From an uncultured Leptospirales bacterium (lineage in GTDB: Bacteria; Spirochaetota; UBA4802; JAFGDQ01): 64,000 nt of DNA. The position numbers were made by a program, and so were the translations under genes. Positions 380-60,475 of this stretch are shown piece after piece (within the stretch, counting starts at the first letter, position 1; each line of letters opens with the position of its first letter). The stretch is from NCBI GenBank assembly GCA_964626055.1, contig CAZVDF010000010.1, positions 5,243-69,242 on the forward strand, written 5' to 3'. The notes under the pieces are model-generated. The model was not told the origin of the DNA, did not search any database, and was given only the letters and a program-made list of their open reading frames with translations.

Positions 380-425
380 AAAATAAAATTCACCGGGGCA
401 AGCCCCCGGTACTGACGTACCGGCC
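380..425 (+). repeat. family B element, 5' fragment (hairpins H1-H2 only)
   Basis: AAAATAAAATTCACCGGGGCAAGCCCCCGGTACTGACGTACCGGCC, nearly identical to the 5' ends of the full copies. Confidence 0.75.
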
Positions 426-445
426 GGAAATTGGATTGTTTACAT

Positions 446-20531: not shown

Positions 20532-22166
20532 ATGAGTATGTTCTGTTTTCAATGCCAGGAAACCGTAAAAAACGAAGGATGCACGATCCGCGGCGTATGC
20601 GGGAAATACGAAGAAACGTCAAATCTTCAGGACCTGCTTTTATTTGTGTGCAGAGGGATTTCCGTCTTTGCCGCAGAATCTGCCGGGACGGGAAAACCGG
20701 ATAAAAACGCCGGCCGCTTTATCGTTAAAGCGTTATTTTCCACAATAACGAATGCGAATTTCGACAACAATAGAATTGCCGCTTTGATTAAGGAAGGGCT
20801 TGCCATACGCGAAGACCTGGAAAAGAAAAGCGCGTTGACCGGCGGTCTTCACGAGTCTGCAACATGGTTTGGCGACAGTACCGAAGAATTCAATGAAAAG
20901 GCAAAAGAAGTCGGCATACTTGCCACAAAAGACCCGGATGCGCGGTCGCTCCGCTCGCTTCTGCTGTTCGGGCTAAAAGGAATAGGCGCTTATGCGGAAC
21001 ACGCGGCCGTACTCGGATATGAGGACGACGGCATTTACAGTTTTCTTATGGAAGCGCTCGAGAGCACGACGAGAGACCTCACGGTTGACGAAATGATAAA
21101 CTGGGTCATGAAAGCCGGCGAAGCGGCGGTGAAGACCATGGCGCTCCTGGATAAGGCCAACACCGGAACATACGGGAATCCCGAGATCACAAAAGTAAAC
21201 ATCGGGGTAAGGAACAATCCCGGCATTCTCGTATCCGGTCATGATCTTAAAGATCTTCACGAACTTCTTGAACAGACCCGGGGCAAAGGCGTGGATGTCT
21301 ACACCCATGGCGAAATGCTGCCCGCGAATTACTATCCGGCATTTAAAAAATACGGCAATTTCGCGGGAAATTACGGCGGATCGTGGTGGCATCAGGACAG
21401 GGAATTCGATACATTCAACGGGCCGGTACTGATGACGACCAACTGCATAATCCCCGTGAAGGATTCCTATAAAGACAGGATATTCACCACAGGAATGGCC
21501 GGATATCCGGGTGTGCGGCATATCGAGGATCGCGATGACGGCGGGAAGAAAGATTTTTCCGTAATAATAGATCTTGCTAAAAAGTGCAAACCTCCTGTCG
21601 AGCTCGAAAGCGGTGAGATTGTCGGAGGATTTGCACACGAGCAGGTTTTTAAACTGGCTGATAAAATCGTGGAGGCGGTAAAATCCGGAGCCGTTAAGCG
21701 TTTTGTTGTAATGGCAGGATGCGACGGAAGGCAAAAGTCCAGGAATTATTTTACGGAGGTTGCGGAACAACTGCCCAAAGATGCGGTCATACTTACAGCA
21801 GGCTGCGCAAAATACAGGTACAACAAGCTAAAGCTCGGCGATATCGGCGGCATACCCCGCGTTCTCGACGCCGGTCAGTGCAACGACTCGTATTCGCTTG
21901 CAGTCATTGCGCTCAAGCTGAAGGAAATCTTAGGGGCAAAGGACGTGAACGAACTTCCAATATCTTTTGATATCGGCTGGTACGAACAGAAAGCGGTAGC
22001 AGTGCTTCTTGCGCTTTTATCTCTCGGGTTTAAAGGGATCAGGCTTGGGCCGACAATGCCGGCATTCCTGTCGCCGGCCGTAGTCAAAGTACTGGTTGAA
22101 AACTTCGGAATTAAACAGACAGAGGATCCGGAGAAGGATATTGACGCGATGATGGCTGGCAAATAA
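20532..22166 (+). CDS. hcp: hybrid cluster protein (hydroxylamine/NO reductase), class I
   Basis: 544 aa. N-terminal C-x2-C-x8-C-x5-C spacing ([22 protein letters not shown]). Confidence 0.93.
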
Positions 22167-22186
22167 AATTTCCGGGGCAAGCCCCC
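22161..22186 (+). repeat. family B element, 5' fragment (H1 only) containing the hcp stop codon
   Basis: AAATAAAATTTCCGGGGCAAGCCCCC. The TAA of hcp (22164-22166) lies inside the AAATAAAATT terminus. Confidence 0.6.
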
Positions 22187-31068: not shown

Positions 31069-31128
31069 GTAATTTATTCCGATTTACAGTCAATCGCTTA
31101 TATGAATCTATAATTTTAAAATGACTTC
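31069..31128 (+). repeat. family A right-half remnant
   Basis: GTAATTTATTCCGATTTA matches the copy-4 right inner stem (GTAATGTATTCCGATTTA) at 17 of 18 positions. It is followed by CTATAATTTTAAAATGACTTC. Confidence 0.6.
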
Positions 31129-31173
31129 TAATTAAAATCATTCGATATTTCGATATATTAATAGAGTATTATA

Positions 31174-31331
31174 ATAAAATTCCCCGGGGCAAGCCCCCGG
31201 TACTGACGTACCGGCCGCCACCTTCGGTGTTGGCGGGGTATTATGTTTCAAGGCGTTATCGATTTGCTCCGCAAATCGATTGGCTTTCATCCTCGACGCA
31301 AGCGTCAAGGTATTACGCCTTGAAATAAAAT
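31174..31331 (+). repeat. family B element, full copy (six hairpins)
   Basis: H1 GGGG-CAAG-CCCC. H2 CCGGTAC-TGAC-GTACCGG. H3 CCGCCA...TGGCGG. Closing stem TTTCAAGGCGT/ACGCCTTGAAA encloses ATCGATTTGC-TCC-GCAAATCGAT and CCTCGACGC-AA-GCGTCAAGG. Confidence 0.85.
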
Positions 31332-31347
31332 CATACGGATATTTTCA

Positions 31348-34637: not shown

Positions 34638-34645
34638 ATATAATT

Positions 34646-35632: not shown

Positions 35633-35643
35633 AGAAAATATTA

Positions 35644-38600
35644 TTATTTTTCGTCCAGGATCTCGCCTATTTTCTGAAGCAAATCGCCGGGCGTAATGGG
35701 CTTGGGCAAAAAATTAAATTCCTTATCCTGTATGCCTTTATCCAGAATAACATCCCTGGTATAACCGCTTGTAAATATGGTTTTGATGCCCGGTCTGAAT
35801 TTAAGCACCTCATCGTATACTTCCCTGCCGTTCTTTTTCGGCATTATAGTATCCACTATCATAAGATCGATATTTTTTATTTTCTTCGATTTTTCAACGG
35901 CATCCTCGCCGTCGACGGCTTCAATAATAGTATACCCGTAAGCGGTAAGTATCGTTTTCATCAGCTTTCTTACGCTTTCGTTATCCTCCGCAATCAGTAT
36001 CGTCTCGCCCCCTTTCCTGAATTGCCGCAACGCGGGTTTCACAGATTCTTCCGAAGTAATACTTAAAGGAAAATAAAGATGGAAAGTCGTTCCTGCATTT
36101 TTTTCGCTATGCACGCCGATATGCCCGCTGTGCTGTTTAATAATCCCGTACACTGTTGAAAGCCCCAGCCCGGTGCCCCTGCCGACCTCCTTGGTAGTAA
36201 AGAACGGATCGAAAATATGTTCGCGGATTTTTGCGTCCATCCCGATCCCCGTATCCGAAAAGGAAAGCAAAGCGTATTTTCCACGCTTCTCAAAACCGGT
36301 GGAATTTTTTTCCATATTCAATACGCGGGTTTCTATGGTTATAGTCCCGCCCTTCGGCATCGCATCCCTCGAATTGGTCGCAAGATTGAACAATATCTGG
36401 TCTATCTGCGAAGGATCGCCCAGTATCGTAGTATCATCCCCGGTCAGTTTCTTCTTAAGAACAATGTCTTCAGTTAAAAGGGTTGCCAGCAGTTTCTCGG
36501 TGCTATTTATGACTTCGTTCAGTTTAATGTTTTTTAAATTGATAGGGCGCTTCCTGCTGAACGATAAAAGCCCCTGAGTCAGGCTTGTCGCTTTTTCGGC
36601 GGATTCGACTATAAGATCAACATACTTTCTCATCGGATTGTCCGTCATTAATCCGCTCTGCAGAAGGGAGCCGTACCCGAGCATAACGCTGAGCATATTA
36701 TTGAAATCGTGCGCAATGCCTCCGACGAAAGTTCCGATGGCTTCCATCTTCTGAGCCTGGCGAAGATCGATCTGAAGTTTTTCCTTTTCCAGCTTGGCCT
36801 GAATATGTTTGGTTATATCGAAGGAAGAACCTTCGTAATAAAGAACCTTCCTGCCGGGATCGCGAACAGCGCGGGCATTTGTCGAAATCCATATTTTTAC
36901 GCCGTCTTTTCTGTAGACTTGATGTTCAAACGCGATCAGGGATTCGTTTTTTTCAAGAGTTCTGATAAACTTGACCTGATCCTCCGGGTTGACGAATAAT
37001 TGTCTTTTTATGTCCGTTATGCTCTTAATCAGTTCATCTGCCGATTCATACCCCAGCATTGAAACAAAAGACGGATTTACATTAATAAACTTTCCTTTGT
37101 AAGTGCACTGGAAAATCCCTTCAACAGATCTGTTGAAAATATCGCGATATTTCTCTTCGCTCACGCGAAGGGCTTCCTCCATTCGCATATGTTCCGTAAT
37201 ATCGCTTATCAAACCGTCGTAGGCAATCAGGCTGCCGCCTTCATAGCGTCTCACGGATGTATTTCTCACCCACCGTACTGTTCCGCTTTTATGAATTATA
37301 CGGTGCTCAATTGGCTTAACTTCTTCATTCCCGAGCACTTTTACCGACTGCTCAACAACCTTCTGCCTGTCGTTATCGTGTATCATTCTATACCACAGCA
37401 TGGGATCGAGCTCAAATTCACGCGAAGAATAGCCTGTTACCATGATACATCCCGGCCCGTGTTTCGTTGAGACGGGAATTCCATTTTCGATTCTGACCGT
37501 ATATATGTAATCCGTAACGGATTCTATAAGTTTTTTAAAGCGCTCCTCGCTTGCCCGCAGTTCTTCCTCTGTCCGCTTGCGTTCGGTTATATCCTGGGTA
37601 GTAAATACGACACCTGCCGATTTATCGTCAAGGTCTACCGCCGCGGCTGTGACATGGACATCCAGGATCCGGCCGTCTTTATGAATCCATTTGGTGTCTG
37701 TCTCGCCCACTTCCCCGTCCCATACTTTACCGTAAACTGCCTCTCCGACGCGCTTGAATTCTTCTTCGCTTAAATAAACATTTTTCGCGTTAAATTCAAG
37801 CTCTTCTATGGTATGGCCGGTTATATGTTTCATCCCGTCGTTTGTCCACGAGATTTTTCTGTCATTTGTTATCAGGGCTATGCCTACCGGCGCTGCGGCA
37901 AAAATTGACCCCATGGTCGCTTCGTTTCTTTTAAGGATTTCTTCCATCTGTTTTCGTTCCGTAATATCCTGCACGGTAAAAACCACACCTGCCGATTTAT
38001 CCTTATAATCTACTGCCCCAATACTGACATGGACGTCCAGTATCCTGCCGCCTTTATGAACCCATTTAGCGTCTGTCTCGCCGATTTTCCCTTCCCAAAC
38101 ATTTTTGTATACCAAATCCCCGACGCGTGAGAACTCCTCTTCTGTTTTATATAGTTCCCTTACGGCTTTGCCGCTCATTTCTTCCATTGAATAACCCGTT
38201 ATAGCGGCTATCCTGTCATTTCCCCACAGAATCTTCCTGTCATCCGTAAGAAATGCAATGCCGATCGGCAATGCGGCAAAAATGGATCTCATGGTCTCTT
38301 CGTTTCTTTTTACAGTTTCTTCCGCAGCCTTGCGCCGGGTTATATCCTGGGCGATAAAGACCACCCCGGCAGATCTGTCATTCGGGTCCAGGGCGGCGAC
38401 GCTGATATGGACGTCAAGAATGCGGCCGTCTTTATGCTTCCATCTGGCGTCTGTCTCCCCGACTTCTCCATTCCAGACTTTACTGTATATAACTTCTCCG
38501 ACGCGCTTATATTCTTCTTCGCTTAAATAAACTTTTTTCGGATCGTATCCGATCTCCGCCACTGTATGGCCGGTTATTAAAGGTTTTGTTTCATTGGCCC

Positions 38601-39513
38601 AGAGAAAATTCCTCTCCGGGCTCATCAGAGTGATATTAATAGGTGAAGCCGTGATAATAGATCTTAACGTGGCCTCGCTTCTCTTCAGCGCTTCTTCAGC
38701 CTGCCTGCGCTGCGATATATCAATTGCGGCCCCTATTATCCTGACAGGCTTGTCCGAACCGTCGCGGACCGTGAAGGAGCGATCTAAAACAAATGCATAG
38801 CTTCCGTCTGAACGCTGAAATCGATATTCGCACGATGAACTGAGCTCTCTTGCTTCAAGCATGACTTCAAGACTATTTTTAAACCGATCTCTGTCTTCCG
38901 GATGAATTTTTTCTATCCACCACTCGATTGTGGCCTCTCCAGCCGAATATCCGAATACGGACTGACAGGCTTCATTCAGCCACATGGTCTTCGAAGCCAG
39001 GTCCCAGTCATGAATTGCTTCGTTAATCGCTCTGGAATAAAGATTGAGACGCTCTTCTTTTTCCATGGACGTTTTTTCGGCTTCTTTGAATTCTGTAATA
39101 TCCGCGAAAGCCCCGACAATCCTGAGCGGACTGCCTGCTGCATTATATGTTACTATCTTCCCCCTGTTCAATATCCAGCGCCATACCCCGTTTTTTGCTT
39201 TAAGACGAATTGTGATCTTATGGCTTTCAATACGGTTCTCTTTGTAAAGGCTGATTATATCCCGCATCGGGGCTTTGTCTTCCGGGTGTACGTAATCAAA
39301 CAATGTTTCGAATGTTGGCGTTAATTTATAGGGTTTGTAACCCAGCATTTTATAAAAAAGAGGGCTTATATAGAGTTCTCCGGTCTCTATATTTAAATCA
39401 AAGATGCCGTTACCGGTAGCATCCAGCGCAAGCGCAAGTCTTTCTTCAGTTTTACTTAAAGTATGTTCTGTATCTTTTTGTATTGAGACATACTTTTTTT
39501 TGCCGTTTTTCAT
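35644..39513 (-). CDS. multi-PAS hybrid sensor histidine kinase / response regulator (HK1)
   Basis: 1289 aa. Multiple PAS modules, H-box GGIAHDFNNMLSV, HATPase G-boxes, C-terminal REC (ILIAEDNE...DLMIVDTIMPKKNG). Confidence 0.9.
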   Translation of the reverse strand: MKNGKKKYVSIQKDTEHTLSKTEERLALALDATGNGIFDLNIETGELYISPLFYKMLGYKPYKLTPTFETLFDYVHPEDKAPMRDIISLYKENRIESHKITIRLKAKNGVWRWILNRGKIVTYNAAGSPLRIVGAFADITEFKEAEKTSMEKEERLNLYSRAINEAIHDWDLASKTMWLNEACQSVFGYSAGEATIEWWIEKIHPEDRDRFKNSLEVMLEARELSSSCEYRFQRSDGSYAFVLDRSFTVRDGSDKPVRIIGAAIDISQRRQAEEALKRSEATLRSIITASPINITLMSPERNFLWANETKPLITGHTVAEIGYDPKKVYLSEEEYKRVGEVIYSKVWNGEVGETDARWKHKDGRILDVHISVAALDPNDRSAGVVFIAQDITRRKAAEETVKRNEETMRSIFAALPIGIAFLTDDRKILWGNDRIAAITGYSMEEMSGKAVRELYKTEEEFSRVGDLVYKNVWEGKIGETDAKWVHKGGRILDVHVSIGAVDYKDKSAGVVFTVQDITERKQMEEILKRNEATMGSIFAAAPVGIALITNDRKISWTNDGMKHITGHTIEELEFNAKNVYLSEEEFKRVGEAVYGKVWDGEVGETDTKWIHKDGRILDVHVTAAAVDLDDKSAGVVFTTQDITERKRTEEELRASEERFKKLIESVTDYIYTVRIENGIPVSTKHGPGCIMVTGYSSREFELDPMLWYRMIHDNDRQKVVEQSVKVLGNEEVKPIEHRIIHKSGTVRWVRNTSVRRYEGGSLIAYDGLISDITEHMRMEEALRVSEEKYRDIFNRSVEGIFQCTYKGKFINVNPSFVSMLGYESADELIKSITDIKRQLFVNPEDQVKFIRTLEKNESLIAFEHQVYRKDGVKIWISTNARAVRDPGRKVLYYEGSSFDITKHIQAKLEKEKLQIDLRQAQKMEAIGTFVGGIAHDFNNMLSVMLGYGSLLQSGLMTDNPMRKYVDLIVESAEKATSLTQGLLSFSRKRPINLKNIKLNEVINSTEKLLATLLTEDIVLKKKLTGDDTTILGDPSQIDQILFNLATNSRDAMPKGGTITIETRVLNMEKNSTGFEKRGKYALLSFSDTGIGMDAKIREHIFDPFFTTKEVGRGTGLGLSTVYGIIKQHSGHIGVHSEKNAGTTFHLYFPLSITSEESVKPALRQFRKGGETILIAEDNESVRKLMKTILTAYGYTIIEAVDGEDAVEKSKKIKNIDLMIVDTIMPKKNGREVYDEVLKFRPGIKTIFTSGYTRDVILDKGIQDKEFNFLPKPITPGDLLQKIGEILDEK
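37573..38697 (-). repeat. in-frame tandem triplication (period 375-378 nt) of a PAS module inside HK1
   Basis: GTCTGTCTC(G/C) recurs at 37696, 38071 and 38449. The three ~125-aa units share ...GETDAxWxHKxGRILDVHV...KSAGVVFxxQDITxRK. Confidence 0.85.
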
Positions 39514-39856
39514 AGGTTAAGGAGACAAAACTGAGTGCATATGTTTTATTTGAAAATTATCGCTACATTATATATAAATTTTACCTTATTATCAAGAAAA
39601 ATAATTGCCGGCGATATTAAAAATATCAAAACAAGTCATTAAAATCCGGTTCCGCAGCAAACTTCAACCAACAAAATATTGAAAGTGCAGCCGTAGCCAT
39701 GGACGGCGATAAGCGGCAGCTATTGAAGGCGGAAAATTCTTAAAAATATGAATATTTTATCGTTGATGCTTACAATCCGAAACATACGAGATGAGTGATT
39801 TTTCAAATTATCTGTATAATTTAATTTTCGGACTTTATGGCATTATTGGTGAGAAA

Positions 39857-39947
39857 TTTTATTTCAAGGCGTAATACCCCGCCGACACGGAAGGTGGCGG
39901 CCGGTATGTCACCTTCAGCCGGGGTGTTGCCCCGGGGAATTTTATTT
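39857..39947 (-). repeat. family B element, short variant (lacks 72-nt H4-H6 segment), contains the HK2 stop codon
   Basis: Reverse complement reads AAATAAAATTCCCCGGGGCAACACCCCGG...CCGGCCGCCACCTTCCGTGTCGGCGGGGTATTACGCCTTGAAATAAAAT. Confidence 0.8.
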
Positions 39948-42900
39948 CCTGTCCAGCATCTCTCCTACTTTATAAAGCAGCTTTTTAGGGGTAACCGGCT
40001 TTGAAATAAAGTCGAATTCCTTTTCTTCTATGCCTTTATCGAGAATTACATCGCGTGTGTATCCGCTTGTGAACAATACTTTAACCTTGGGATTAATCTT
40101 GATTATTTCGTTGTACACTTCCCTGCCGTTCTTTTTCGGCATTACTGAATCAATTATTACCAGGTCCGCTTTTTTATTTCTGCGGAATTTTTCAATCGCA
40201 TCCTGGCCGTCCACAGCTTCAATAATCTGATAGCCGTATCTGGCGAGTATTTTCTTAATCAGCAATCTGACTCCTTCATTATCTTCGGCGACAATGATCT
40301 TCTCGTTCCCGGACCTGATCTTCGGGCTGGCTTTCTTTTTTTCTTTTCCCATCCTTTTTGCAGAAGGGAAATATATATGGAAAGCTGTGCCTATATTAAG
40401 CTCGCTGTATACGTTTATATAGCCGTTATGCTGCTTTACAATGCCATATACCGTGGAGAGCCCGAGGCCTGTTCCTTTGCCCACTTCCTTTGTCGTAAAG
40501 AAAGGATCGAAAATGTGCTCCCTGGAATCCTTATCAATTCCAACTCCCGTATCCGATACCGAGAGAAGGACATATTTGCCGGGTTTGCCGTAACCGACAA
40601 GATTAAAAAATTCCTTATCGAGCTCGACAACGCTTGTTTCAATTAGTAACGTCCCGCCTTTAGGCATAGCGTCTCTCGCGTTTGTCAGGAGATTGAACAA
40701 TATTTGATCTATCTGCGTGGGATCTCCCAAAATACTTGTATTTTCTTTTGTCAGTTTTTCCTTTAATAAAATGTCTTCCGTAAGCAGACGCTTTAATAAT
40801 TTTTTTGTCCCTTTAATGGCGTCATTCAATTCTAACTGCGTTAAATTAATGGCCTGTTTTCTGCCGAATGCAAGAAGCCCCTGGGTCAGACCGGTGGCTT
40901 TCTCCGAAGACGAAAGTATGAGATCCGCATAACTGCGCAGAGGATTATCTTTATCCAGTTCCATCTGCAAAAGAGTGGCGTATCCGACAATAATGCTTAA
41001 TATGTTGTTAAAATCGTGCGCTATTCCTCCGACGAAAGTCCCCAGGGCTTCCATTTTCTGAGCCTGGCGAAGCTGGGCATATAGCTTCTCCTTATCCTCT
41101 TCATCCTGCTTGCGTCTGGTAATATTATCAGCTATGCCTTCAAAATAAAGCACTTTCCCGTCTTTATCTCTGACTGCGCGGGCATTTACAGATATCCATA
41201 TTTTATTGCCGTCTTTTCTGTAAAGCTCATGTTCGAATCCGAATATTGTACCGGCCTTTTTAAGCGTTTCCTCAAAGAATGCAGCCGCTTCTTCTTGGAC
41301 AAACAACTGTTTCTGAATATTATTGATACTCTCGATTAATTCCTTCGGCGAATCGTATCCCAGCATAGCCGCAAATGAAGGATTAATATCTAAAAATTTT
41401 CCTCCGGTGCTGCTCTGAAAAATCCCCTCGACAGCCCTTTCGAATATATCGCGGTATTTCTCTTCGCTTACGCGCAGGGCTTCCTCCGCCATCTTACGAG
41501 CAGTAATATCCTGCACAATGCCCTCCTCCTTTTTCACCTGTCCGGCTTCATCAAAACTGGAGCGGCCTTTAACTCTTAACCAGCGGATTTCCCCATCAGG
41601 ACATTTGATGCGGTATTCGACTTCAATGATTCCGAAATCTTTCCCTGTCCATGTATTTGCCTTCTTCACGGCTTCAACAAGTGTTTCTTTATCAATGATA
41701 TTAAATATCTTCGGTATCCCGATCTCGTCCAATTCTACTACCGGGGTATCCGGCGGAAAACCGTATATGGCAAGATGTTCCTGCGAAAGGTATAGCTTAC
41801 CAGTCCGCAAGTCGAATGAATAAGTTCCGAAATTGGCCGCTTCCGCCGCATTGCGCAGACGTTCCTCGTTTTCGCGCAGGGCTTCCTCCGCTTTCCTGCG
41901 TTCCGTTATATCCATCCCGAATGAGATTATGCCGGTGACTTTTCCCTGTTCCCGCACTAAATTATTCCGCCATACTATATAACGCTCCTCGCCGGTTTTA
42001 GTTAAAATGGGATTTTCAAAACGCATCGGCGGTCCGCCATCGCTCAATCGCTCAAATTCCGTCCATACTTCCTGGTACCGGTCCCTGGGAACGATTGTTT
42101 CAAACCAGTTTTTCTTTTTCAATTCCTCGCGGGTATAGCCTGTGATCTCCCGGGCGGCCTGGTTGAAAACGGTTATAAATCCCTTTAGATCAAGCCCCAC
42201 CACGATCGTATTGGCGGTCTGGATCAGATTTTCCGCGTAATCTTTGGCTGACTGCAAAGCTGTCTCCGCCTGCTTCCGTTCGGTTATATCGCTTATAATC
42301 CCGTCATAGCCGATAAATTTCCCATCCGGATCATGATGCGGCACTGGAGTATTCCTCACCCAGCGAATCGTGCCGTTTTTATGTATTATTCGATGCTCAA
42401 CGGCACGCACTTCTTTGCCCGCAAGAATACCGTTTGTCTGTTCAGCCACAGTATCTCTGTCCGCCTCGTATATCATCCTGTACCAGAGATAAGGATCTGC
42501 GGCAAATTCATGAGGAGAATAACCAGTCAGCGCCATGCAGGCCGGGCCGTGCTGTGTGGATACCGGCCGGTTATCTTCGATCTTTACGCTGTAAATATAA
42601 TCGCTAACCGAATCCAGAAGCTGTTTATAGCGTTCCTCGCTTTCCAGGATTGCTTCTTCAAACTGCTTTCGTCTGGTAATGTCGACATGCTGGATTATTG
42701 CGTTTGTTATTTTACCCTCCGCGTCCCGGATCGGGAAGATGGTCACATCAATAATTACAAACACATGATGCTTCAGTTTAATATTTTTCAGCTCCGCGCT
42801 CTTATATTTAAGCTCGAATTTTGCCGTCTCGCCGGATTCGTATACTTTCTTTACAAGAGGCATATATCCCTGTTCTTTTACAATATTGTCGCTAAAAATA

Positions 42901-43874
42901 TTGTACTTGCCTAAAACATCTTCTTCGGATAAATGCAACAATTCCAGACAGGCTTTATTGATCTTTATAAGCGTGCCCTTTTCATCCGAAATCCACATCG
43001 GGATCGGGCTTTGATTTATAATGCTGTTAAGAAAGGATTCGGAGGATGCCAGCGCTTCTTCATAACGTTTCCGCTCCGTTGTGTTCACAAGCATTGCAAT
43101 ATTTCCGTTGACAATCCCATTCGGATCGCGGAGCGGGGAAGCATAAAGTGTGTAGCTGATAGGAGTTCCGTCCTTACGGTGCCGTGACAGGTCAATACCG
43201 ATAACAGACTGCCCGGATTTAATGGCTTCTCTTAACTTTTTAAACTCCCTTTTAGCGGCTTCCGTCTGAACGCTCGGCAGGAAATGGCCTATCGCTTCTT
43301 CTTTTGTCCATCCCAGCATCTGCTCGGCTGCCGGATTCCATATGCTTTGAACTATCCCGTCCTCAGTGAGATCGAATATGGCGACAGGAAGCGAATCCAG
43401 CACTGCCCGTAATGTGTCCTTTGCTTTATACAGCGTCCCATTGAAATGTCTGCGCTGCGTAATGTCGCGCAAAAAAGCCAGCATGCGGTCAAGCTCGCGG
43501 TAATATGTTACGCTGATCTCAATATCTATAACATGGCCGTCTTTATGCTTCAGCCTCGATTCAAAAATATCGGAGCCGTACTTTTTTATCTTTAGTATAT
43601 GAGCCCTGACTTCATCCGGCGTCTCTATCATTTCAAGATCGCCGATGGTCATATCAAGAAGCTCATCCTCGCTGTAACCGACCATTCGGCAAAAAGTATT
43701 ATTTACTTCAATAAGCTTACCATCCGTATCGGCAGCCCAGAATCCATCCATTGAAGTGCCGGTGAGGATATGATACTGTTCGGCATAAATGCGCAGCAGA
43801 TCGCTCTCGCTGTGTGAGCCGGAAGATGTTTCGGATACGGGTTTTTTTATAATATTTTTCCTTATATTTTTCAT
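39942..43874 (-). CDS. multi-PAS hybrid sensor histidine kinase / response regulator (HK2, paralogue of HK1)
   Basis: 1310 aa. Same C-terminal architecture as HK1 (GGIAHDFNNILSI, REC with DLVIIDSVMPKKNG). Confidence 0.9.
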   Translation of the reverse strand: MKNIRKNIIKKPVSETSSGSHSESDLLRIYAEQYHILTGTSMDGFWAADTDGKLIEVNNTFCRMVGYSEDELLDMTIGDLEMIETPDEVRAHILKIKKYGSDIFESRLKHKDGHVIDIEISVTYYRELDRMLAFLRDITQRRHFNGTLYKAKDTLRAVLDSLPVAIFDLTEDGIVQSIWNPAAEQMLGWTKEEAIGHFLPSVQTEAAKREFKKLREAIKSGQSVIGIDLSRHRKDGTPISYTLYASPLRDPNGIVNGNIAMLVNTTERKRYEEALASSESFLNSIINQSPIPMWISDEKGTLIKINKACLELLHLSEEDVLGKYNIFSDNIVKEQGYMPLVKKVYESGETAKFELKYKSAELKNIKLKHHVFVIIDVTIFPIRDAEGKITNAIIQHVDITRRKQFEEAILESEERYKQLLDSVSDYIYSVKIEDNRPVSTQHGPACMALTGYSPHEFAADPYLWYRMIYEADRDTVAEQTNGILAGKEVRAVEHRIIHKNGTIRWVRNTPVPHHDPDGKFIGYDGIISDITERKQAETALQSAKDYAENLIQTANTIVVGLDLKGFITVFNQAAREITGYTREELKKKNWFETIVPRDRYQEVWTEFERLSDGGPPMRFENPILTKTGEERYIVWRNNLVREQGKVTGIISFGMDITERRKAEEALRENEERLRNAAEAANFGTYSFDLRTGKLYLSQEHLAIYGFPPDTPVVELDEIGIPKIFNIIDKETLVEAVKKANTWTGKDFGIIEVEYRIKCPDGEIRWLRVKGRSSFDEAGQVKKEEGIVQDITARKMAEEALRVSEEKYRDIFERAVEGIFQSSTGGKFLDINPSFAAMLGYDSPKELIESINNIQKQLFVQEEAAAFFEETLKKAGTIFGFEHELYRKDGNKIWISVNARAVRDKDGKVLYFEGIADNITRRKQDEEDKEKLYAQLRQAQKMEALGTFVGGIAHDFNNILSIIVGYATLLQMELDKDNPLRSYADLILSSSEKATGLTQGLLAFGRKQAINLTQLELNDAIKGTKKLLKRLLTEDILLKEKLTKENTSILGDPTQIDQILFNLLTNARDAMPKGGTLLIETSVVELDKEFFNLVGYGKPGKYVLLSVSDTGVGIDKDSREHIFDPFFTTKEVGKGTGLGLSTVYGIVKQHNGYINVYSELNIGTAFHIYFPSAKRMGKEKKKASPKIRSGNEKIIVAEDNEGVRLLIKKILARYGYQIIEAVDGQDAIEKFRRNKKADLVIIDSVMPKKNGREVYNEIIKINPKVKVLFTSGYTRDVILDKGIEEKEFDFISKPVTPKKLLYKVGEMLDRK

Positions 43875-44057
43875 AAAAAAAGAAAAACAAGCAGGATAAT
43901 TCAGCCGGGTATTATCGATAGAATTAGATATTTACTTTATAATAGCATTGCTATTAAATCAAGAAATATTCTTTAAAAAATTTTAATTATTCATAAAAAA
44001 ATTATAAAAATTTTCATTTATTAATTTACGGTCCGAAAATTTTTTTTTCTTGCGTCC

Positions 44058-44087
44058 TTGACATCCGGATACTCATATGACTAAAAT
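44058..44087 (+). promoter_or_regulatory. putative sigma70-type promoter for exbB
   Basis: TTGACA (44058-44063), 18 nt, TAAAAT (44082-44087). Implies a ~165-nt leader. Confidence 0.4.
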
Positions 44088-44261
44088 AAACGACAAGCAG
44101 CAGAGCTGGTAGTATTAAAAACATTATTAAAATACATTTTTTATAGCAGTGTTGTGGTCGTTTGTTTTGAAAAAGAATCCGGGCATAGCCCGTATTCCCA
44201 CCGGTGAAAAGACCGGTTGGTAATAATGCGGCTTTAAAAGCTAAAATACGAGAGAGAGCTT

Positions 44262-44888
44262 ATGTCAGAATTATTCTTAATAGATTACGGAGAGTTTTTT
44301 ATATTTTCCATGCTTGTGCTCGCCAGTATCACCGCTCTGGCAGTGGGTATCGAAAGAACAATTGTTTTTAAAAAAAATTCCAGTAAAAGAATCACGGCGT
44401 TTGCCGAAAAACTGATCCTGCTTATAAGGAAACGCGATATTAAGGCGGCTTTGAATCTGGTAAAAGAATCGGGCGACAATGCTTATACGAGATTCGCCCT
44501 GTTCTCAATAGACCACCTGAATGAAAGTGAGGAAGGCCTGACCAATTTAATGTCGGGTAAAATTATTGAAGAAAAAATTAACCTTGAAAAACGGCTCACT
44601 ATTCTGAACACGCTGGGGAACAATGCGCCTTTTATCGGGCTTCTCGGGACGGTGCTGGGCGTGATCAAAGCATTCTACGGCCTCGGAACTCTCGGCAGCA
44701 CTGGCGCTGAGGTCGTAATGCGCAGCATATCCAAAGCCCTTTACGCAACGGCATTCGGGCTTTTCATAGCGATACCGGTGGTAATGGCGAACAATTACTT
44801 TTCCAAGAAAGTAAAAATCATTATACAGCATCTGGAAATATTGTCAAAGGAAATAAGCGCAGGATTAAATTCTAAAAAAAAGAAATAA
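44262..44888 (+). CDS. exbB: MotA/TolQ/ExbB proton-channel protein
   Basis: 208 aa. Three TM helices and conserved LGNNAPFIGLLGTVLGVI segment. Confidence 0.85.
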   Translation: MSELFLIDYGEFFIFSMLVLASITALAVGIERTIVFKKNSSKRITAFAEKLILLIRKRDIKAALNLVKESGDNAYTRFALFSIDHLNESEEGLTNLMSGKIIEEKINLEKRLTILNTLGNNAPFIGLLGTVLGVIKAFYGLGTLGSTGAEVVMRSISKALYATAFGLFIAIPVVMANNYFSKKVKIIIQHLEILSKEISAGLNSKKKK

Positions 44889-44904
44889 TTAAAATAATTG
44901 CGTC

Positions 44905-45144
44905 GAATCCATTTCGAAAAAATTAATTAATATGCGTAGCTATAAGTTATATTTATAATATGTTTTTCTTTTAAATAAATCTAAATACATTACAGAATTT
45001 TCTGCGGAATCAGACCTTCCTGGTTAGTTTTTCATATTTTTGGCAGCTGTTGCATCAGGTCTGAAAGGCGTCCTCAAAAATTTTGTAATGTATTTAGATT
45101 TATTGATAATTATTTAGAATAATATTATATTTTAAAATGACTTC
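44905..45144 (+). repeat. family A element, copy 3 (inner hairpin 44974..45104), between exbB and exbD
   Basis: Degenerate left terminus GAATCCATTTCGAAAAAATTA. Right terminus ATTTTAAAATGACTTC. Inner stem AATAAATCTAAATACATTACAGAATTTT and its complement. Subfamily-1 core. Confidence 0.8.
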
Positions 45145-45161
45145 TGGAAAGAGGTAGTTAT

Positions 45162-45563
45162 ATGGCATTCTTACCGGGCAGCGAAGACGATGAAATAGGT
45201 TATATAAATATCACCCCCATGGTCGATGTTCTCCTTGTGTTGCTGGTGATATTCATGGTGACTGCAAACTTTTTAAAAATGGAATCCGTCAACATCAATC
45301 TTCCGAAGGTTAACGCGGCCGATCCCAATATACAGAAATCCGTACAGATCGCGCTTACCATAAACGGCAAACTGCTTCTGGAGGATACCGAAGTAACGGA
45401 AGAAAGGATGATAGACAGGCTTAAACAGGAAGCCAAGTACAGACCCAATATGAGAGTAACGCTTTCGGCTGACGAACGGCTCTCCTACGGGAGAATAGCG
45501 CGCGTAATGGGACTGATCCGCCAGGCCGGCGTAACGCGTATCGCGTTGTCCGTTAAACGATGA
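45162..45563 (+). CDS. exbD: ExbD/TolR biopolymer transport protein
   Basis: 133 aa. INITPMVDVLLVLLVIFMV N-terminal TM pattern. Confidence 0.85.
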   Translation: MAFLPGSEDDEIGYINITPMVDVLLVLLVIFMVTANFLKMESVNINLPKVNAADPNIQKSVQIALTINGKLLLEDTEVTEERMIDRLKQEAKYRPNMRVTLSADERLSYGRIARVMGLIRQAGVTRIALSVKR

Positions 45564-45575
45564 TGAGTAAATATC

Positions 45576-46241
45576 ATGGTATTTCGTTTGCGAAAAAAAA
45601 TATTTGAGTTTTTCCGCCGGATGGATCTTTTCCAGAGGTGTTTCACCGGTTCATTTATCCTGCACATGATTATTCTGATAATATATTACGGCCCGAGCAT
45701 CTTTGCCTTCACATTTGATGGTGACGCAATTGATGCCGGTAAAATTGCGGCCAGTGCAAACGTAGAAGTCGATTTCATCGAAAGCCTTCCTGCCTCAATA
45801 ACGCTCGGCGGCGATACGAATCCGGCGCCCGTGCAGAAAGAAGAATGGATCGAGGGCACAGGCGAAGACAGGCCGGACGCGGCAAACACCGACGTGAATA
45901 TCAACAAGCTTTCCGGTACCGGGACCGATGCGGACGGGTACATGTTTGCGGATCTCGCAGACCGCCCGCCGATACCTATGATAGATTTCAATCCGAATGA
46001 TTATTTTCCGAAGGAAGCAAGATCGGCAAATATTTTCCGCCAGAGCGTAATCGTCCGGTTCCAGGTCAATGAAAACGGAAAAGTCAACAGCGCAAGAATA
46101 ATTTCCCCGCCGGCAAAATACGGTTTTGACGAAGCCGCAATGAAGGTGGTAAGTAAAATAAAATTCAGACCCGGAAAAGAAAAAGGCAAGCCAAAAAAAA
46201 TGTGGACGGATTATGAGCTCAGATTTGAATTTGAAGACTGA
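45576..46241 (+). CDS. tonB: TonB-family energy transducer (C-terminal TonB domain)
   Basis: 221 aa. N-terminal TM and C-terminal YPKEARSANIFRQSVIVRFQVNENGKV...KFRPG pattern. Confidence 0.75.
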   Translation: MVFRLRKKIFEFFRRMDLFQRCFTGSFILHMIILIIYYGPSIFAFTFDGDAIDAGKIAASANVEVDFIESLPASITLGGDTNPAPVQKEEWIEGTGEDRPDAANTDVNINKLSGTGTDADGYMFADLADRPPIPMIDFNPNDYFPKEARSANIFRQSVIVRFQVNENGKVNSARIISPPAKYGFDEAAMKVVSKIKFRPGKEKGKPKKMWTDYELRFEFED

Positions 46242-46378
46242 GGATCAATTTTAACAGATGCTGAATGATTTTTCCGATAGTCGGGCCTGTCAATCGATTA
46301 GTTATCTACTGGAATAAGCCCTAAAAAATATTCTTGAAATAATTAGTCTGTTTTCCTATTATTGCCGGTTAAGAGAAT

Positions 46379-46450
46379 GCGGGCGTAATTCAGTGGCAGA
46401 ATGCTAGCTTCCCAAGCTGGACGTCGCCGGTTCGACCCCGGTCGCCCGCT
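46379..46450 (+). tRNA. tRNA-Gly (CCC)
   Basis: Cloverleaf GCGGGCG...CGCCCGC with discriminator U. Anticodon loop TTCCCAA. TTCGACC T-loop. Confidence 0.9.
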
Positions 46451-46459
46451 CATTTATCC

Positions 46460-46485
46460 GAACGAGGGGTATAAGCCCCTCGTTC
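46460..46485 (+). terminator. hairpin after tRNA-Gly
   Basis: GAACGAGGGG-TATAAG-CCCCTCGTTC followed by TGCACTTT (weak U tract). Confidence 0.35.
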
Positions 46486-46519
46486 TGCACTTTAAGCAAC
46501 AACATTAATTGATCTGATT

Positions 46520-47452
46520 ATGCAGAAAACATCCATAAAAAGTCACGGAGTAATCGCAGCAATAGGCAATACTCCTCTTGTGGAATTAAAATATCTTAAT
46601 CCGAACAAAAAGATCCGTATAATGGCAAAGCTCGAAGGCTCGAATCCCGGGGGATCGGTTAAGGACAGGCCTGCTTATTACATGCTCAAGAATGCCGTCG
46701 AATCCGGACTTTTAACGAAGAATAAAACGATACTGGAACCGACAAGCGGCAATACGGGCATCGGCCTTGCGATGGTAGGAGCCGCATTGGGGTTTAAAGT
46801 TAAGCTCTGTATGCCGGACTGCGTGTCCTTCGAGCGGAGAGCAATCCTTGAAGCTCTCGGCAGTGAGCTTGTTTTGACCGACGGATCGAAAGGTACCGAC
46901 GGCGCGATCATAATGGCAAAACAAATGCTCAGGGAAAATCCGGAAAAATATTATATGCCGGATCAATTCTCAAATCCATTCAATATACAGTCCCATTACG
47001 AGACCACAGCGCCGGAAATAATAAACCAGACGGGAGGAGATATCGCAGCTTTTGTGGCGGCTCTGGGCACCACCGGAACCCTTATGGGAACATCAAAAAG
47101 ATTCCGCGAATACGACAGAGACATTAGAATAATAGCAATTGAACCTGCGGTGGGGCATACTATTCAGGGATTAAAGAACATGCAGGAATCCATAGTCCCG
47201 GCAATTTATAATCCGGACATGCACGACGAAAAAATTACAGTTACCGATAATGAAGCTTTCGATATGTGCAAACAACTCGCGTTAAAAGAAGGGCTGTTCT
47301 GCGGGATGTCGAGCGGAGCGGCGGTAGCCGGGGTTTTAAAATATGCCGCGCAAATAAAAAGCGGCACAATAGTGACGCTTCTGCCGGACAGGGGAGACCG
47401 GTATCTTTCAACCGCTCTTTTTAAATCCGTATGCGCCAAATGCCCGCCGTAG
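46520..47452 (+). CDS. cysK: cysteine synthase (CysK/CysM family, PLP-dependent)
   Basis: 310 aa. KLEGSNPGGSVKDRPA and TSGNTGIGLA motifs. Confidence 0.85.
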   Translation: MQKTSIKSHGVIAAIGNTPLVELKYLNPNKKIRIMAKLEGSNPGGSVKDRPAYYMLKNAVESGLLTKNKTILEPTSGNTGIGLAMVGAALGFKVKLCMPDCVSFERRAILEALGSELVLTDGSKGTDGAIIMAKQMLRENPEKYYMPDQFSNPFNIQSHYETTAPEIINQTGGDIAAFVAALGTTGTLMGTSKRFREYDRDIRIIAIEPAVGHTIQGLKNMQESIVPAIYNPDMHDEKITVTDNEAFDMCKQLALKEGLFCGMSSGAAVAGVLKYAAQIKSGTIVTLLPDRGDRYLSTALFKSVCAKCPP

Positions 47453-47536
47453 ACAAAGGTGTATTTTCACTTGACTTTTTACAACCGGCATCTATCCATT
47501 TTAAAAATTCAGTATTCTATAAGTACAAATTATTTC

Positions 47537-47695
47537 AAAATAAAATTCCCCGGGGCAAGCCCCCGGTACTAACGTACCGGCTGCCACCTTTGGTGTCGGC
47601 GGGGTATTATGTTTCAAGGCGTTATCGATTTGCTCCGCAAATCGATAGGCTTGCATCCTCGACGCAAGCGTCGAGGTATTACGCCTTGAAATAAA
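47537..47695 (+). repeat. family B element, full copy
   Basis: Collinear with 31174..31331 with scattered substitutions. The H6 stem is perfect here (CCTCGACGC/GCGTCGAGG). Confidence 0.85.
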
Positions 47696-47752
47696 TTTTA
47701 AATTTCCCTCATAAATTAAAAACCAACAGAAAAATATGGAGGCATGCCGGCA

Positions 47753-48733
47753 ATGGATATACAGGCAATTGCTATCAGAGTCGAAAAAGAAAACATAATT
47801 GTCCGAAAGATTCTGGCCGAGATCGAAAAGGCAGTCGTTGGACAGAGAAACCTTCTTGAAAAAATGCTGATAGGGCTTATCTGCGACGGCCATATACTGC
47901 TTGAAGGACTGCCCGGTCTTGCAAAAACTACGGCGGTGCGCGCCCTGGCAGCGGCAATAAGCACTTCTTTCCAGAGAATCCAGTTTACACCCGACCTTCT
48001 GCCTGCGGATATTCTGGGGACTCAAATTTACAGACCGGACAGCGGGAAATTCGAGATACGTAAAGGGCCCATTTTCCATAACATCATCCTCGCCGACGAA
48101 ATAAACCGCGCGCCCGCGAAAGTTCAGAGCGCGCTTCTTGAGGCCATGCAGGAAAGACAGGTAACTATAGGTGAAACGACCTTTGAGCTTGCAAAACCGT
48201 TCCTTGTTCTTGCAACGCAGAACCCTATTGAGCAGGAGGGAACATATCCTCTGCCGGAAGCGCAGATCGACCGTTTTATGATGAAAATAAAAGTCGATTA
48301 TCCCAGCGCCGAGGAAGAAAAAGAAATTATGCAGAGAGCAAATAATCTTTCAATCGCAAATATATCCGGGATTGCATCCGTTGCGGAACTGGGATCCGTC
48401 AGGGAAACAGTCAAATCAATCCACATGGAAGAGAAGATAGTGCAATATATAGTGAATATTTCAAGGGCTACGCGCATGCCCGGAGATTTCGGCCTTAACA
48501 TTGGCTCCATGATACATTACGGCGCTTCGCCGAGAGCGTCCATCTGGCTCGGCGAAGCGAGCCGCGCGCACGCATTCATGGCCGGACGCGGATATGTGAC
48601 GCCCCAGGACGTCAAGACCATGGCGCCGGATATCCTTCGCCACAGGATTATCCTGAGTTACGAAGCGGAAGCCGAAGGCAAAAGCGCGGACGAATTTATC
48701 GCCATGTTCCTGGAAAGGATAGAAGTGCCGTAA
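47753..48733 (+). CDS. moxR: MoxR-family AAA+ ATPase
   Basis: ORF from 47744. ATG at 47753 lies 10 nt after GGAGG. Walker A GLPGLAKT, Walker B ILADEINRA. Confidence 0.9.
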   Translation: MDIQAIAIRVEKENIIVRKILAEIEKAVVGQRNLLEKMLIGLICDGHILLEGLPGLAKTTAVRALAAAISTSFQRIQFTPDLLPADILGTQIYRPDSGKFEIRKGPIFHNIILADEINRAPAKVQSALLEAMQERQVTIGETTFELAKPFLVLATQNPIEQEGTYPLPEAQIDRFMMKIKVDYPSAEEEKEIMQRANNLSIANISGIASVAELGSVRETVKSIHMEEKIVQYIVNISRATRMPGDFGLNIGSMIHYGASPRASIWLGEASRAHAFMAGRGYVTPQDVKTMAPDILRHRIILSYEAEAEGKSADEFIAMFLERIEVP

Positions 48734-53459: not shown

Positions 53460-53662
53460 GGACTCCGTCTCATCAATATTAACTTTGATGAGTAAGTAGC
53501 AATATATCGGAATACATTACAAAATTTACTCCGGAATCAGGCCTTCCTGGTTAGTTTTTTATGTTTTCGAAAGCTGCTGCATCAGGCCTGAAAGGCGTCC
53601 TCATAAATTCTGTAATGTATTCCGATTTATCAAAGTATAAAATCAAATTTTGAGATGATTCC
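53460..53662 (+). repeat. family A element, copy 4 (inner hairpin 53506..53626), between batC and batD
   Basis: Right terminus AAATTTTGAGATGATTCC; left terminus degenerate. Inner stem ATCGGAATACATTACAAAATTTA and its complement. Subfamily-2 core. Confidence 0.8.
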
Positions 53663-59015: not shown

Positions 59016-59211
59016 TAAGTGATCTTAAAATAATTTTTTTAAGATAAATTGGGATACATTACAAAATTTTCTGCGGAATACCTTCCTGGTCAGTCTAATA
59101 TGTTTCCGAACGCAATTACATCAGATCTGAAAGGCGTCCTCAAAAACTTTGTAATTTATCCCAATTTATTGATGATCATTCAATATTTATAAATAATTTT
59201 GAGATAACTTC
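59016..59211 (+). repeat. family A element, copy 5 (inner hairpin 59044..59169), between dnaX and ybaB
   Basis: Termini TAAGTGATCTTAAAATAAT / AATAATTTTGAGATAACTTC. Inner stem ATAAATTGGGATACATTACAAAATTTT and its complement (one mismatch). Core has a 3-nt deletion. Confidence 0.8.
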
Positions 59212-59218
59212 AATATAT

Positions 59219-60475
59219 TTATTCAATTACTTCTCCGTGGAACAGGCTTTTAATGCTGTTTATGGCAGATTCCTCGCTGTCAGCCTGCCTCTTTTTGTCT
59301 GCCTCGTTTTCCGGAACAGATGGCTTGTTATTACCTTCTGCTTCTGAAATTTTCCGGAGTATCGATGCAAGAGAAGGATTCTTTTTAACGTTCACCATAT
59401 CCAGAAGCGCCATCTCAAGGCATATTCTTTCATTTGTCGAGAATCTCAGATTATTCTGAAGGTCTACAGCCAGCTTGAAAATAATTCCGAGTTCCTCATC
59501 GTTAAAATTACCGCCGGTTTTCTTTAAAAGCAGCATCTCGTCTTCGGAAAATCCCAGGATATCTGTTAAAATTATACCATTATTGACAAGCCTGACCGTC
59601 CTTATTATATCAATAAAGCCCGCGGCATATCTCGGGATATCGACGCCGAGCGTAACGATCCTGTCGATCTCATCTATAATTTTAACAGGTTCTATGTTAT
59701 TTATGAATGTCAATAATTTCAGATAGCTCTCGAGCGTGACGATTCCAAGGATCGAAAGCGCGTCTTCCTCGCTTATGCTTCCGTCGGAGAAGGATATCAC
59801 CTGGTCAAGCAGGGACTGCGAATCCCGCATCGATCCTTCGCCGGCGCGCGCAATCGGATGAAGCGCGCCTTTGTCTATCCTGTAACCTTCTTCGCGGACA
59901 ATTTTCTCCAGATGACCGGCGACGGCATCAACCGGGATCTTTTTAAAGAGGAATTTCTGGCATCTGGATAATATTGTTTCGGGTATGCGATGAATTTCAG
60001 TTGTTGCAAAAATAAAAACCACATGTCTTGGAGGCTCCTCAAGAGTTTTGAGAAGAGCGTTAAATGCCTCCTTTGTCAGCATATGGACTTCATCTATTAT
60101 GTAAACCTTATACCTGGCTTTTACCGGCGCAAGGTTTACATTCTCTCTCAGTTCCCTTATGTTGTCGATCCCCCTGTTGGAAGCGCCGTCGATCTCAATA
60201 ACGTCAAAAGAGTACCCTCTTCTTATCTCAACGCAGTTTTCACAGGTATCGCACGGGCTATCGGTAGGATTTTCACCGGAAAGGCAGTTCAAAGCTTTGG
60301 CGAATATCCTTGCCATAGTTGTCTTGCCGACGCCTCTCGGGCCGGAGAAGAGATAAGCCTGTGAAATTCGGCCCATCCTTATGCTGTTTCTTATTGTTTT
60401 TGAGATGTGATCCTGGAAAACAACATCTTCAAACTTCTGCGGACGCCATTTCCTGGCAATCACCTGGTATGTCAT
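59219..60475 (-). CDS. dnaX: DNA polymerase III gamma/tau subunit (short form, 418 aa)
   Basis: YQVIARKWRPQKFEDVV, Walker A GPRGVGKTT, zinc module CDTCENC, SRC motif. Confidence 0.92.
   Translation of the reverse strand: MTYQVIARKWRPQKFEDVVFQDHISKTIRNSIRMGRISQAYLFSGPRGVGKTTMARIFAKALNCLSGENPTDSPCDTCENCVEIRRGYSFDVIEIDGASNRGIDNIRELRENVNLAPVKARYKVYIIDEVHMLTKEAFNALLKTLEEPPRHVVFIFATTEIHRIPETILSRCQKFLFKKIPVDAVAGHLEKIVREEGYRIDKGALHPIARAGEGSMRDSQSLLDQVISFSDGSISEEDALSILGIVTLESYLKLLTFINNIEPVKIIDEIDRIVTLGVDIPRYAAGFIDIIRTVRLVNNGIILTDILGFSEDEMLLLKKTGGNFNDEELGIIFKLAVDLQNNLRFSTNERICLEMALLDMVNVKKNPSLASILRKISEAEGNNKPSVPENEADKKRQADSEESAINSIKSLFHGEVIE

Follow-up and report, generated by a model that had tools for sequence, protein, structure and literature searches.

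What kind of element occupies the intergenic region between cysK and moxR? The preliminary description of the window (the whole 64-kb stretch of DNA analysed here) had noted a hairpin-rich sequence at this site, grouped it with four further copies as family B, and proposed it as a candidate structured RNA module, always co-oriented with transcription. Our analysis supports a different reading, to which we give a probability of roughly 0.6: family B is a lineage-specific set of small, non-coding, modular interspersed repeats that are non-autonomous and mobile now or were so recently.

Exactly five copies of family B are present in the window, as determined by BLAST of the element against the window, by the repeat search (families D7, D13 and D15) and by a covariance model. 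The model was built on the first structural domain (domain 1) of 17 copies and run unfiltered over the whole window, where nothing above noise was detected beyond the five copies already listed. The ~158-nt family of the preliminary description is real, and its two full copies, short minus-strand copy and two 5' fragments were all recovered.

47539..47695, plus strand: full long copy in the cysK-moxR intergenic region, 87 nt past the cysK stop and ~49 nt ahead of the moxR start
31173..31329, plus strand: full long copy between a divergent PASTA-domain gene and an sbcD-like gene
39858..39946, minus strand: deletion derivative, with domain 1 fused straight to the 3' end, between two tandem histidine-kinase paralogues
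382..426, plus strand: 5' fragment consisting of AATAAAAT, H1 and H2, scoring 44.1 bits with the covariance model
22162..22186, plus strand: 5' fragment consisting of AATAAAAT and H1, with the hcp TAA stop (22164-22166) inside the fragment

The two full copies share 95.5% identity over 157 nt by BLAST and were paired by the repeat search as D7; their flanks are unrelated, which rules out a segmental duplication. The copy at 47539 scored 100.6 bits with the covariance model (domain 1), and the 3' end of the copy at 31173 lies ~17 nt ahead of the sbcD start codon. The junction in the 39858 copy is a deletion between two GGTATTA repeats, and the TAA stop of the upstream kinase (39944-39942) falls within the element's AATAAAAT. 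The 382-426 fragment stops 5 nt short of the first possible start (TTG) of the hemC frame; the likely ATG is ~21 nt downstream. The kinases flanking the short copy, at 35644-43874 on the minus strand, are two tandem paralogous PAS-rich hybrid histidine kinases of ~70-73% DNA identity with internal 375-nt PAS repeats. One such kinase is present at this position in the related locus L048 and none in L050, and the kinase site is therefore a variable spot within an otherwise collinear region.

When the 164-nt stretch 47537-47700 was folded as RNA, a free energy of -75.6 kcal/mol was obtained, compared with -45.7 +/- 3.7 for dinucleotide shuffles (z = -8.1; 0/200 shuffles as good). All of the hairpins proposed earlier were recovered in this fold. 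They had been described as six consecutive hairpins; an enclosing CCCC/GGGG stem had been missed, and the layout is in fact that of two multi-branch domains. The closing stem of the second domain, proposed to be 11 bp, is present but extends to 13 bp in the fold.

47539..47611, plus strand: domain 1, a four-way junction defined by the fold, covariation and the covariance model; it starts with the 5' AATAAAAT
47548-51 with 47601-04, plus strand: closing stem of domain 1, CCCC with GGGG, 4 bp, lengthened by AAU/AUU and enclosing H1-H3
47552-63, 47564-79 and 47580-47600, plus strand: H1, H2 and H3 of domain 1, from the fold
47610..47695, plus strand: domain 2, a three-way junction defined by the fold and the alignment; its last bases are TTGAAATAAA
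47610-22 with 47681-93, plus strand: closing stem of domain 2, 13 bp in the fold
47623-47 and 47657-76, plus strand: H5 and H6 of domain 2, from the fold

The fold is kept by compensatory changes, which bears out the claim of a structured element. In the 17-sequence alignment 90.9% of stem cells are paired, versus 39-49% after the 3' partners are slid by 1-3 columns. Six base pairs in H2 and H3 show compensatory changes, as in the variants CCGGTAC/GTACCGG, CCGGTGC/GCACCGG, CTGGTAC/GTACCAG and TGATAC/GTATCA; in the alignment of domain 2, H5 is compensated or expanded in L011 and L004. The independent compensatory events are few, because most of the changes separate two subfamilies. Substitutions between the two full window copies do not preferentially break stems: 4/7 fall in loops or linkers, 2/7 yield G-U and 1/7 yields C-A.

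One reading is a dedicated cis-acting RNA, a module under selection wherever it occurs because, as a UTR element, it would stabilise, process or regulate the mRNA of its host. The very stable fold and the compensatory pairs speak for it, and the compensatory changes together with the invariant 5' motif would fit selection on RNA equally well. The strand on which selection acts is a separate matter. Stem mismatches comprise 9 G:T and 11 A:C, and with G:U not preferred over A:C a sense-strand RNA signature was rejected. The opposite strand of 47537-47700 folds nearly as strongly as the sense strand (z = -7.2), and the element also folds as single-stranded DNA (z = -5.0); both the missing preference for G:U and the almost equal folding of the opposite strand count against an RNA module. 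Judged from the aligned copies, the hairpins are constrained, and the constraint could act on the sense RNA, on the DNA or on either strand.

Rfam searches returned nothing at the element at gathering score, nor at E<=1 over the whole window; at E<=10 with the element alone, the best score was 13 bits, to U2 and microRNA models. The earlier statement that the element is no known ribozyme or riboswitch stands, with no Rfam family matching it even at E<=10. The element was likewise not found in scans of metagenome and viral collections or by plasmid and phage BLAST (the distant BLAST covered 72,556 plasmids), and a full-text literature search with the element's own sequence words gave no match. 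Pattern-only matches in Porticoccus and other taxa, where the searched word alone matched, were taken as chance or ordinary terminators.

When one genome per species was scanned for exact words of the element, only two Spirochaetota MAGs, JAZDKB01 and JAFGSG01, proved to carry it, with one 5' fragment also in a MAG labelled Leptospirales. The window and these three Spirochaetota MAGs together yield at least 31 copies, a lower bound that comes from exact-word scans and is partly biased towards copies with intact 5' ends. Gene calls at the MAG loci (designated by L numbers) are crude longest-ORF heuristics.

The copies occur in long, short and mini or truncated classes that have the same ends. 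The long form measures ~160 nt. In the short form (~95 nt) a TTTCAA-GGCG-TTGAAA hairpin takes the place of the second domain, and the junction is recurrent, indicating that the short form itself has propagated. In the mini form (50 nt) H1 is fused to H6 at their common GCAAGC. About a third of the copies are truncated, with about eleven 5' fragments that have differing cut points and one or two 3' fragments. Three JAZDKB copies are interrupted inside or beside H3 by another repeat with the ends GTACATGCAGGGCTGCCTCACG / CGTAAGGCAGCCCTCCTGCGTAC (L001 about 60-250, L046 about 120-205 and L018 about 1290-1330), and some apparent fragments are therefore split copies. A weak covariance-model match of 32.6 bits was also seen at L007 5667-5740 on the plus strand, starting at the 3' AATAAAATG of a mini copy; a diverged relative may have inserted there, in tandem and into the same AATAAA.

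The ends of the element are sharply defined. The preliminary description had both ends carrying AAATAAAAT; the 5' end is an invariant AATAAAAT with unrelated sequence ahead of it, and the 3' end is an invariant GAAATAAA (in its fuller form ...CCTTGAAATAAA) followed by variable bases, reading AAATAAAT in the 47539 copy. The layout is variable chromosome, AATAAA, ATTCCCC ... CCTTGA, AATAAA, variable chromosome, with the same AATAAA hexamer as the flanking repeat in every copy. Outside AATAAA, the bases at one end show no covariation with those at the other, two copies (w39 and L007b) excepted. A fixed AATAAA target would give such a constant bracket equally well by being duplicated or by serving as a common crossover core, and the insertion boundaries drawn here are putative.

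A classical cut-and-paste MITE, derived from an IS with terminal inverted repeats and flanked by AATAAA as its ordinary target-site duplication, would account for a small, non-coding, dispersed and structured element with direct repeats at both ends, and family A, in the same genome, is a true MITE-like family with inverted repeats. Family B, however, lacks terminal inverted repeats: TCCCCGGGGCAAGC and the reverse complement of ...GTATTACGCCTTGA match at 6/14 positions, and the only inverted matches in the element are its internal hairpins. The flanking hexamer is constant in all copies, without the site-to-site variation of ordinary duplications, and 351 kb of loci yielded no parent element with these ends. 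A MITE origin was rejected on the inverted repeats and on the site-variable target duplication, although the element is small, non-coding, multi-copy and variably present as MITEs are, and we regard it as very improbable.

The element shows a marked relation to stop codons. In 13/31 copies the stop of the upstream gene lies in or beside the 5' AATAAAAT; in 11 of them the TAA of a co-oriented upstream ORF falls within AATAAAAT, and two more copies abut the stop. At these copies the final sense codon is AAA or GAA without exception, consistent with an RAA-TAA-A site that was there beforehand. The Hcp C-terminus (...AMMAGK*) agrees residue for residue with that of Desulfovibrio Hcp 1e2u, and the histidine kinase ends in ...LDRK*, the same as its paralogue and its L048 orthologue. 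By these comparisons the stop codons at the element are native in both cases tested (Hcp and the histidine kinase), and the other proteins upstream of stop-codon copies have complete domains. Stop-overlapping AATAAA hexamers represent ~7% of non-disruptive background sites versus 35-42% of the copies (p about 1e-7), so either insertion or survival favours stop codons. This six-fold enrichment exceeds what simple AATAAA targeting provides and needs a survival bias or an extra preference. The striking placement at stop codons also favours an RNA module, which could for example block 3'-to-5' exonucleases past the stop codon; further in its favour, 5' fragments that keep H1 persist mostly as stop carriers (7/11 fragments versus 5/18 complete copies carry a stop codon, p=0.12).

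No consistently conserved ORF is present in family B. The long form can be read through in one frame, and short ORFs begin at an internal ATG in GGGGTATTATG; the frames and ends of these ORFs differ between copies, and they are in frame with the downstream gene only in L013, so that coding potential was rejected as chance. In L013 (999-1044, minus strand) the ATG in GGGGTATTATG shares its frame with the exbB start, which lies 45 nt downstream, and no stop intervenes. A 15-residue N-terminal extension of exbB is possible there; we judged it to be chance, as other short copies run into stops.

The orientation of the copies was evaluated statistically, counting as informative only those between same-direction genes. 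Among 20 such copies from the window and the MAGs, 16 are co-oriented and 4 anti-oriented (p=0.012). The bias between same-direction genes is thus real and is one of the points in favour of an RNA module, but the claim that the element is always co-oriented with transcription fails, and the bias is carried wholly by the stop-codon copies: these make up 10/16 co-oriented copies, and without them the ratio is 6:4 (p=0.75). Stop-codon copies are co-oriented by necessity, because AATAAA is not palindromic and provides TAA on the sense strand only. All five window copies are indeed co-oriented with their neighbours, but only three (22162, 39858 and 47539) are informative; the 31173 copy has divergent genes on its two sides, and for the 382 copy the upstream gene is outside the window. 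Copies in the window and in contig JAZDKB010000029 change strand as the local gene does, a pattern that would argue against a purely replication-strand bias. Two further statements of the preliminary description agree with our data: no conserved promoter precedes the copies, their 5' flanks being unrelated, and the positions of the copies imply transcription within leaders, intercistronic regions or 3' UTRs, that is, expression as parts of UTRs.

A second contribution to the bias may come from polarity. A terminator scan picked out the following sites at the element.

47539..47566, minus strand: intrinsic-terminator shape, H1 with the T-rich tail CCGGGGGCTTGCCCCGG GGAATTTTAT
31173-31200, minus strand, and 39919-39946, plus strand: the same reverse-H1 terminator shape

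In 30800-48000 the three best terminator-like sites are all H1 in reverse, with GGAAUUUUAU after it. The intrinsic-terminator shape, H1 and then AAUUUUAU, arises in the reverse orientation only; none of the sense-strand hairpins has a U-tract behind it, and UAC... or AAAUAAA follows instead. Both full window copies sit in leaders, and a reversed copy at 47539 or 31173 would be expected to block the operon.

The same feature raises the possibility that the element acts as a mobile terminator or insulator, in which reverse-strand H1 and its U-tract stop antisense or convergent transcription into the upstream gene, a SPRITE-like co-option. That the reverse strands of H1 rank first in 17 kb is consistent with this, as is the invariance of the 5' AATAAAATT, a U-tract when reversed; copies in L002, L016 and L044 lie between convergent genes, the one in L002 just 8 nt past the stop of the opposite-strand gene. 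An opposite-strand gene reads into only 7/27 copies with known flanks, however, and most copies lie between same-direction genes with no antisense gene to stop. The sense strand, moreover, lacks a U-tract after any hairpin. Termination or insulation as the element's useful activity is improbable in our estimate.

The presence of the element was compared at orthologous sites in related genomes. From sbcCD through exbBD-tonB-cysK-moxR, two loci run collinear with the window: L048 (JAFGSG, MoxR 90% identical) and L050. The cysK-moxR intergenic region is without the element in L048, L049, L050 and L052, and the PASTA-sbcD intergenic region is without it in L050; the covariance model detected no copy over 88 kb of related contigs. 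Upstream of exbB the situation is reversed, with a short copy in L013 (JAZDKB), 21 nt upstream, and none in the window or L048. In this empty-site comparison the nearest relatives have MoxR proteins 88-91% identical, and the intergenic regions align only near gene ends. The window copies are 95.5% identical, versus 88-91% for the orthologous MoxR proteins, and presence differs at orthologous sites; this pattern points to a repeat that has recently spread within genomes. The host neighbours are unrelated housekeeping genes, including hemC, hcp, sbcD, moxR, leuS, mdh, znuA, a permease and others, and no transposase lies next to a copy among the neighbouring genes checked.

These data are difficult to reconcile with the proposed dedicated structured RNA module. 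The element is absent from orthologous intergenic regions of relatives, its host genes have no functional theme, copies also occur in leaders, between divergent genes and reversed, and about a third are truncated, with many of them decayed; the mismatch counts (G:T 9 versus A:C 11) add to this. Selection as an RNA module at each site is on this evidence unlikely, although somewhat less so than the other alternatives. We favour a dispersed mobile repeat because the element is absent at orthologous sites, has unrelated neighbours, is truncated in about one third of copies and bears no sense-strand signature. Secondary co-option as RNA at some sites may have occurred and is compatible with the repeat reading, though the evidence does not need an RNA module.

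Two other sequences were seen near these sites. Upstream of exbB in the window (44170-44245) are the hairpins CGGGC-ATA-GCCCG and ACCGGT-GAAAAG-ACCGGT, followed by GGTAATAATG. The layout loosely recalls domain 1, at the site where JAZDKB has a short copy, and the reverse strand of the first hairpin scores terminator-like; a diverged orthologous copy (44170-44240) was considered and rejected, as the covariance model does not detect one. Past the cysK stop, a block TTTTCACTTGACTTT..N..TTTATCCATTTTAAAA is found at 47455-47510 of the window, at 9760-9815 of L048 and at equivalent positions in L050 and L052. This block (CACTTGACTTT...TTATCC) is kept in four genomes, the remaining intergenic DNA is not, and it probably serves the moxR/bat operon as promoter or operator. 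The 47539 copy is situated downstream of the block.

Several families of small bacterial repeats resemble family B, of which bcr1 of the Bacillus cereus group is the closest analogue by its described features. As described in PMC3184786, PMC6542083 and PMC6199540, bcr1 is a ~155-bp repeat with TTTAT flanking repeats, many partial copies, compensatory changes and a non-conserved distribution, and its mobilisation is unexplained and termed 'site-specific recombination-like'. So far as these descriptions go, the two families share their size (~155 bp), restriction to a single lineage and positions that are not conserved between close relatives. Both are bracketed by a constant short AT-rich direct repeat, and the complement of TTTAT, ATAAA, lies inside AATAAA. 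Like family B, bcr1 is predicted to have two independent stem-loop domains with compensatory changes; its partial copies far outnumber the complete ones, which we also count as a likeness. Family B thus shows the bcr1-type set of features by comparison with the descriptions in PMC3184786 and PMC6199540. The host phyla differ, and the stop-codon placement and the reverse-strand terminator shape of family B are not mentioned for bcr1 in the texts consulted. The distant BLAST gave no sign of homology to bcr1-bcr3, with no match in the 72,556 plasmids, some of which reportedly carry bcr1 (PMC6542083); this comparison is indirect.

The pneumococcal BOX elements are modular, with constant end modules and an internal module that is optional or repeated, and are tightly folded and co-transcribed with adjoining genes; SPRITEs lie near gene 3' ends and are terminator-like, and the BOX and SPRITE families are confined to one species group (PMC3049150). 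Family B shares modularity with BOX and the gene-end position with SPRITE. Terminal inverted repeats and target duplications, both absent from family B, are features of BOX and RUP. SPRITE is AT-rich and a terminator in its own orientation, whereas the terminator shape of family B exists on the opposite strand only; on the sense strand, a GC-rich hairpin with a U-tract after it, reading in the direction of the upstream gene as in an intrinsic terminator or SPRITE, is absent. Overlap with stop codons is not reported for BOX, SPRITE or RUP.

REP/BIME sequences and the IS200/IS605-derived PATEs are known to be mobilised in trans by HUH tyrosine transposases (PMC3597680, PMC3733652). As in family B, they are extragenic and hairpin-based, lack terminal inverted repeats and have a short conserved motif at the foot of a hairpin; their insertion is strand- and orientation-specific, beside a fixed short target and without ordinary target duplication. 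REPs are single palindromes of 20-40 nt tagged GTAG or CGTC, whereas family B extends over 95-160 nt in multi-branch domains and has no GTAG or CGTC tag at a hairpin foot. The features of a PATE are found in family B, namely sub-terminal hairpins, no inverted repeats and a fixed short 5' sequence: the invariant AATAAAAT begins 13 nt ahead of H1, and the 3' stem ends within GAAATAAA. The left and right end hairpins of IS200/IS605 elements are alike, whereas those of family B are dissimilar by eye, the G-CAAG-C loop common to H1 and H6 being the only likeness between H1 and the 3' hairpin; this would argue against membership among IS200/IS605-derived PATEs. An IS200/IS605-like single-strand mechanism would fit the lack of inverted repeats, the sub-terminal hairpins, the fixed 5' target and the orientation specificity.

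MIRUs, which are small and mobile, go into the start codons of host genes in a single orientation relative to transcription, with minimal disturbance of host expression (PMC12548453). They provide a precedent for codon-boundary insertion in one orientation, and differ in having a small coupled ORF and tandem units, where family B has stop codons and a single hairpin-rich unit. An integron attC site or cassette was rejected, since the ends AATAAAAT and GAAATAAA lack RYYYAAC...GTTRRRY cores; no integrase was found among the genes checked, and the copies are spaced 8-22 kb from one another, with housekeeping genes around them. The end sequences and the absent partner genes also led us to reject a retron, a group II intron fragment and a tRNA-like element. 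Judged by these likenesses, family B is best placed as a new family in the class that includes bcr1, BOX/SPRITE and REP/BIME.

The repeat reading suggests the following course of events. The element would integrate at AATAAA hexamers in an orientation-specific manner, by a reaction supplied in trans that could be site-specific or single-strand and hairpin-dependent (HUH/IS200-IS605-like or bcr1-like), or could involve duplication of AATAAA. Copies away from stop codons would survive mainly in the non-terminating orientation. Once inserted, the element would be transcribed passively along with its neighbours, adding a very stable structured segment to a leader, an intercistronic region or a 3' UTR. 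Conservation of the hairpins would primarily reflect a need of the mobilising machinery, and any stabilising or insulating effect on the mRNA would be secondary. Apparent perfect co-orientation can in this way come from an asymmetric, stop-containing target together with orientation-dependent polarity, with no RNA function.

There is also a more speculative scheme, which we consider improbable, about as much so as the terminator/insulator role. The element would be a mobile structured-RNA/DNA module that homes one-way to TAA stops in RAA-TAA-A by an undescribed, hairpin-dependent and inverted-repeat-free mechanism, with gene-end copies domesticated as 3'-UTR or antisense-insulator modules; the candidates for the machinery would be a trans-acting HUH enzyme, or an RNA-guided recombinase with the element as guide or donor structure. 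If the stop-codon placement is true targeting, family B offers a tractable case for how bcr1-type repeats move without inverted repeats. As a dispersed repeat, family B adds a well-defined family without inverted repeats to the uncultured Spirochaetota of anoxic habitats; to our knowledge, small repeats of such kind are essentially undescribed in Spirochaetota. For annotation, the element should be masked and not called as an sRNA or riboswitch.

Other elements were seen in the window. A second repeat of ~190 nt, presumably family A of the preliminary description, is present at 8118-8324, 9029-9235, 44938-45130, 53465-53657 and 59025-59220, with a partial copy at 31069-31137, and also at L048 8370-8565 and L049 1282-1408. 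It has the inverted ends GGGATACATTACAAAATTTT ... AAAACTTTGTAATTTATCCC and is on that account classical MITE-like; one copy lies between exbB and exbD, where L048 has just a 33-nt gap. A weak match to the Rfam family MIR8562 at 8149-8289 corresponds to this repeat and is spurious. At 6497-6652 on the plus strand, upstream of the ORF 6684-7979, a TwoAYGGAY RNA (RF01731) was matched over the full model with 46 bits against a gathering score of 43, seen in the E-value search only and not in the gathering-threshold search. Finally, the repeat search (D16) found four copies of a G/C-run motif, TGCCCCCTCCGGGGGTTAGGGGG, at 3112-3134, 5424-5446, 20311-20333 and 22236-22258, each preceding a plus-strand gene by 20-200 nt; hcp and the ferredoxin-like gene that follows it are among these genes, and the motif may represent a regulator site or else a hairpin of a small RNA.
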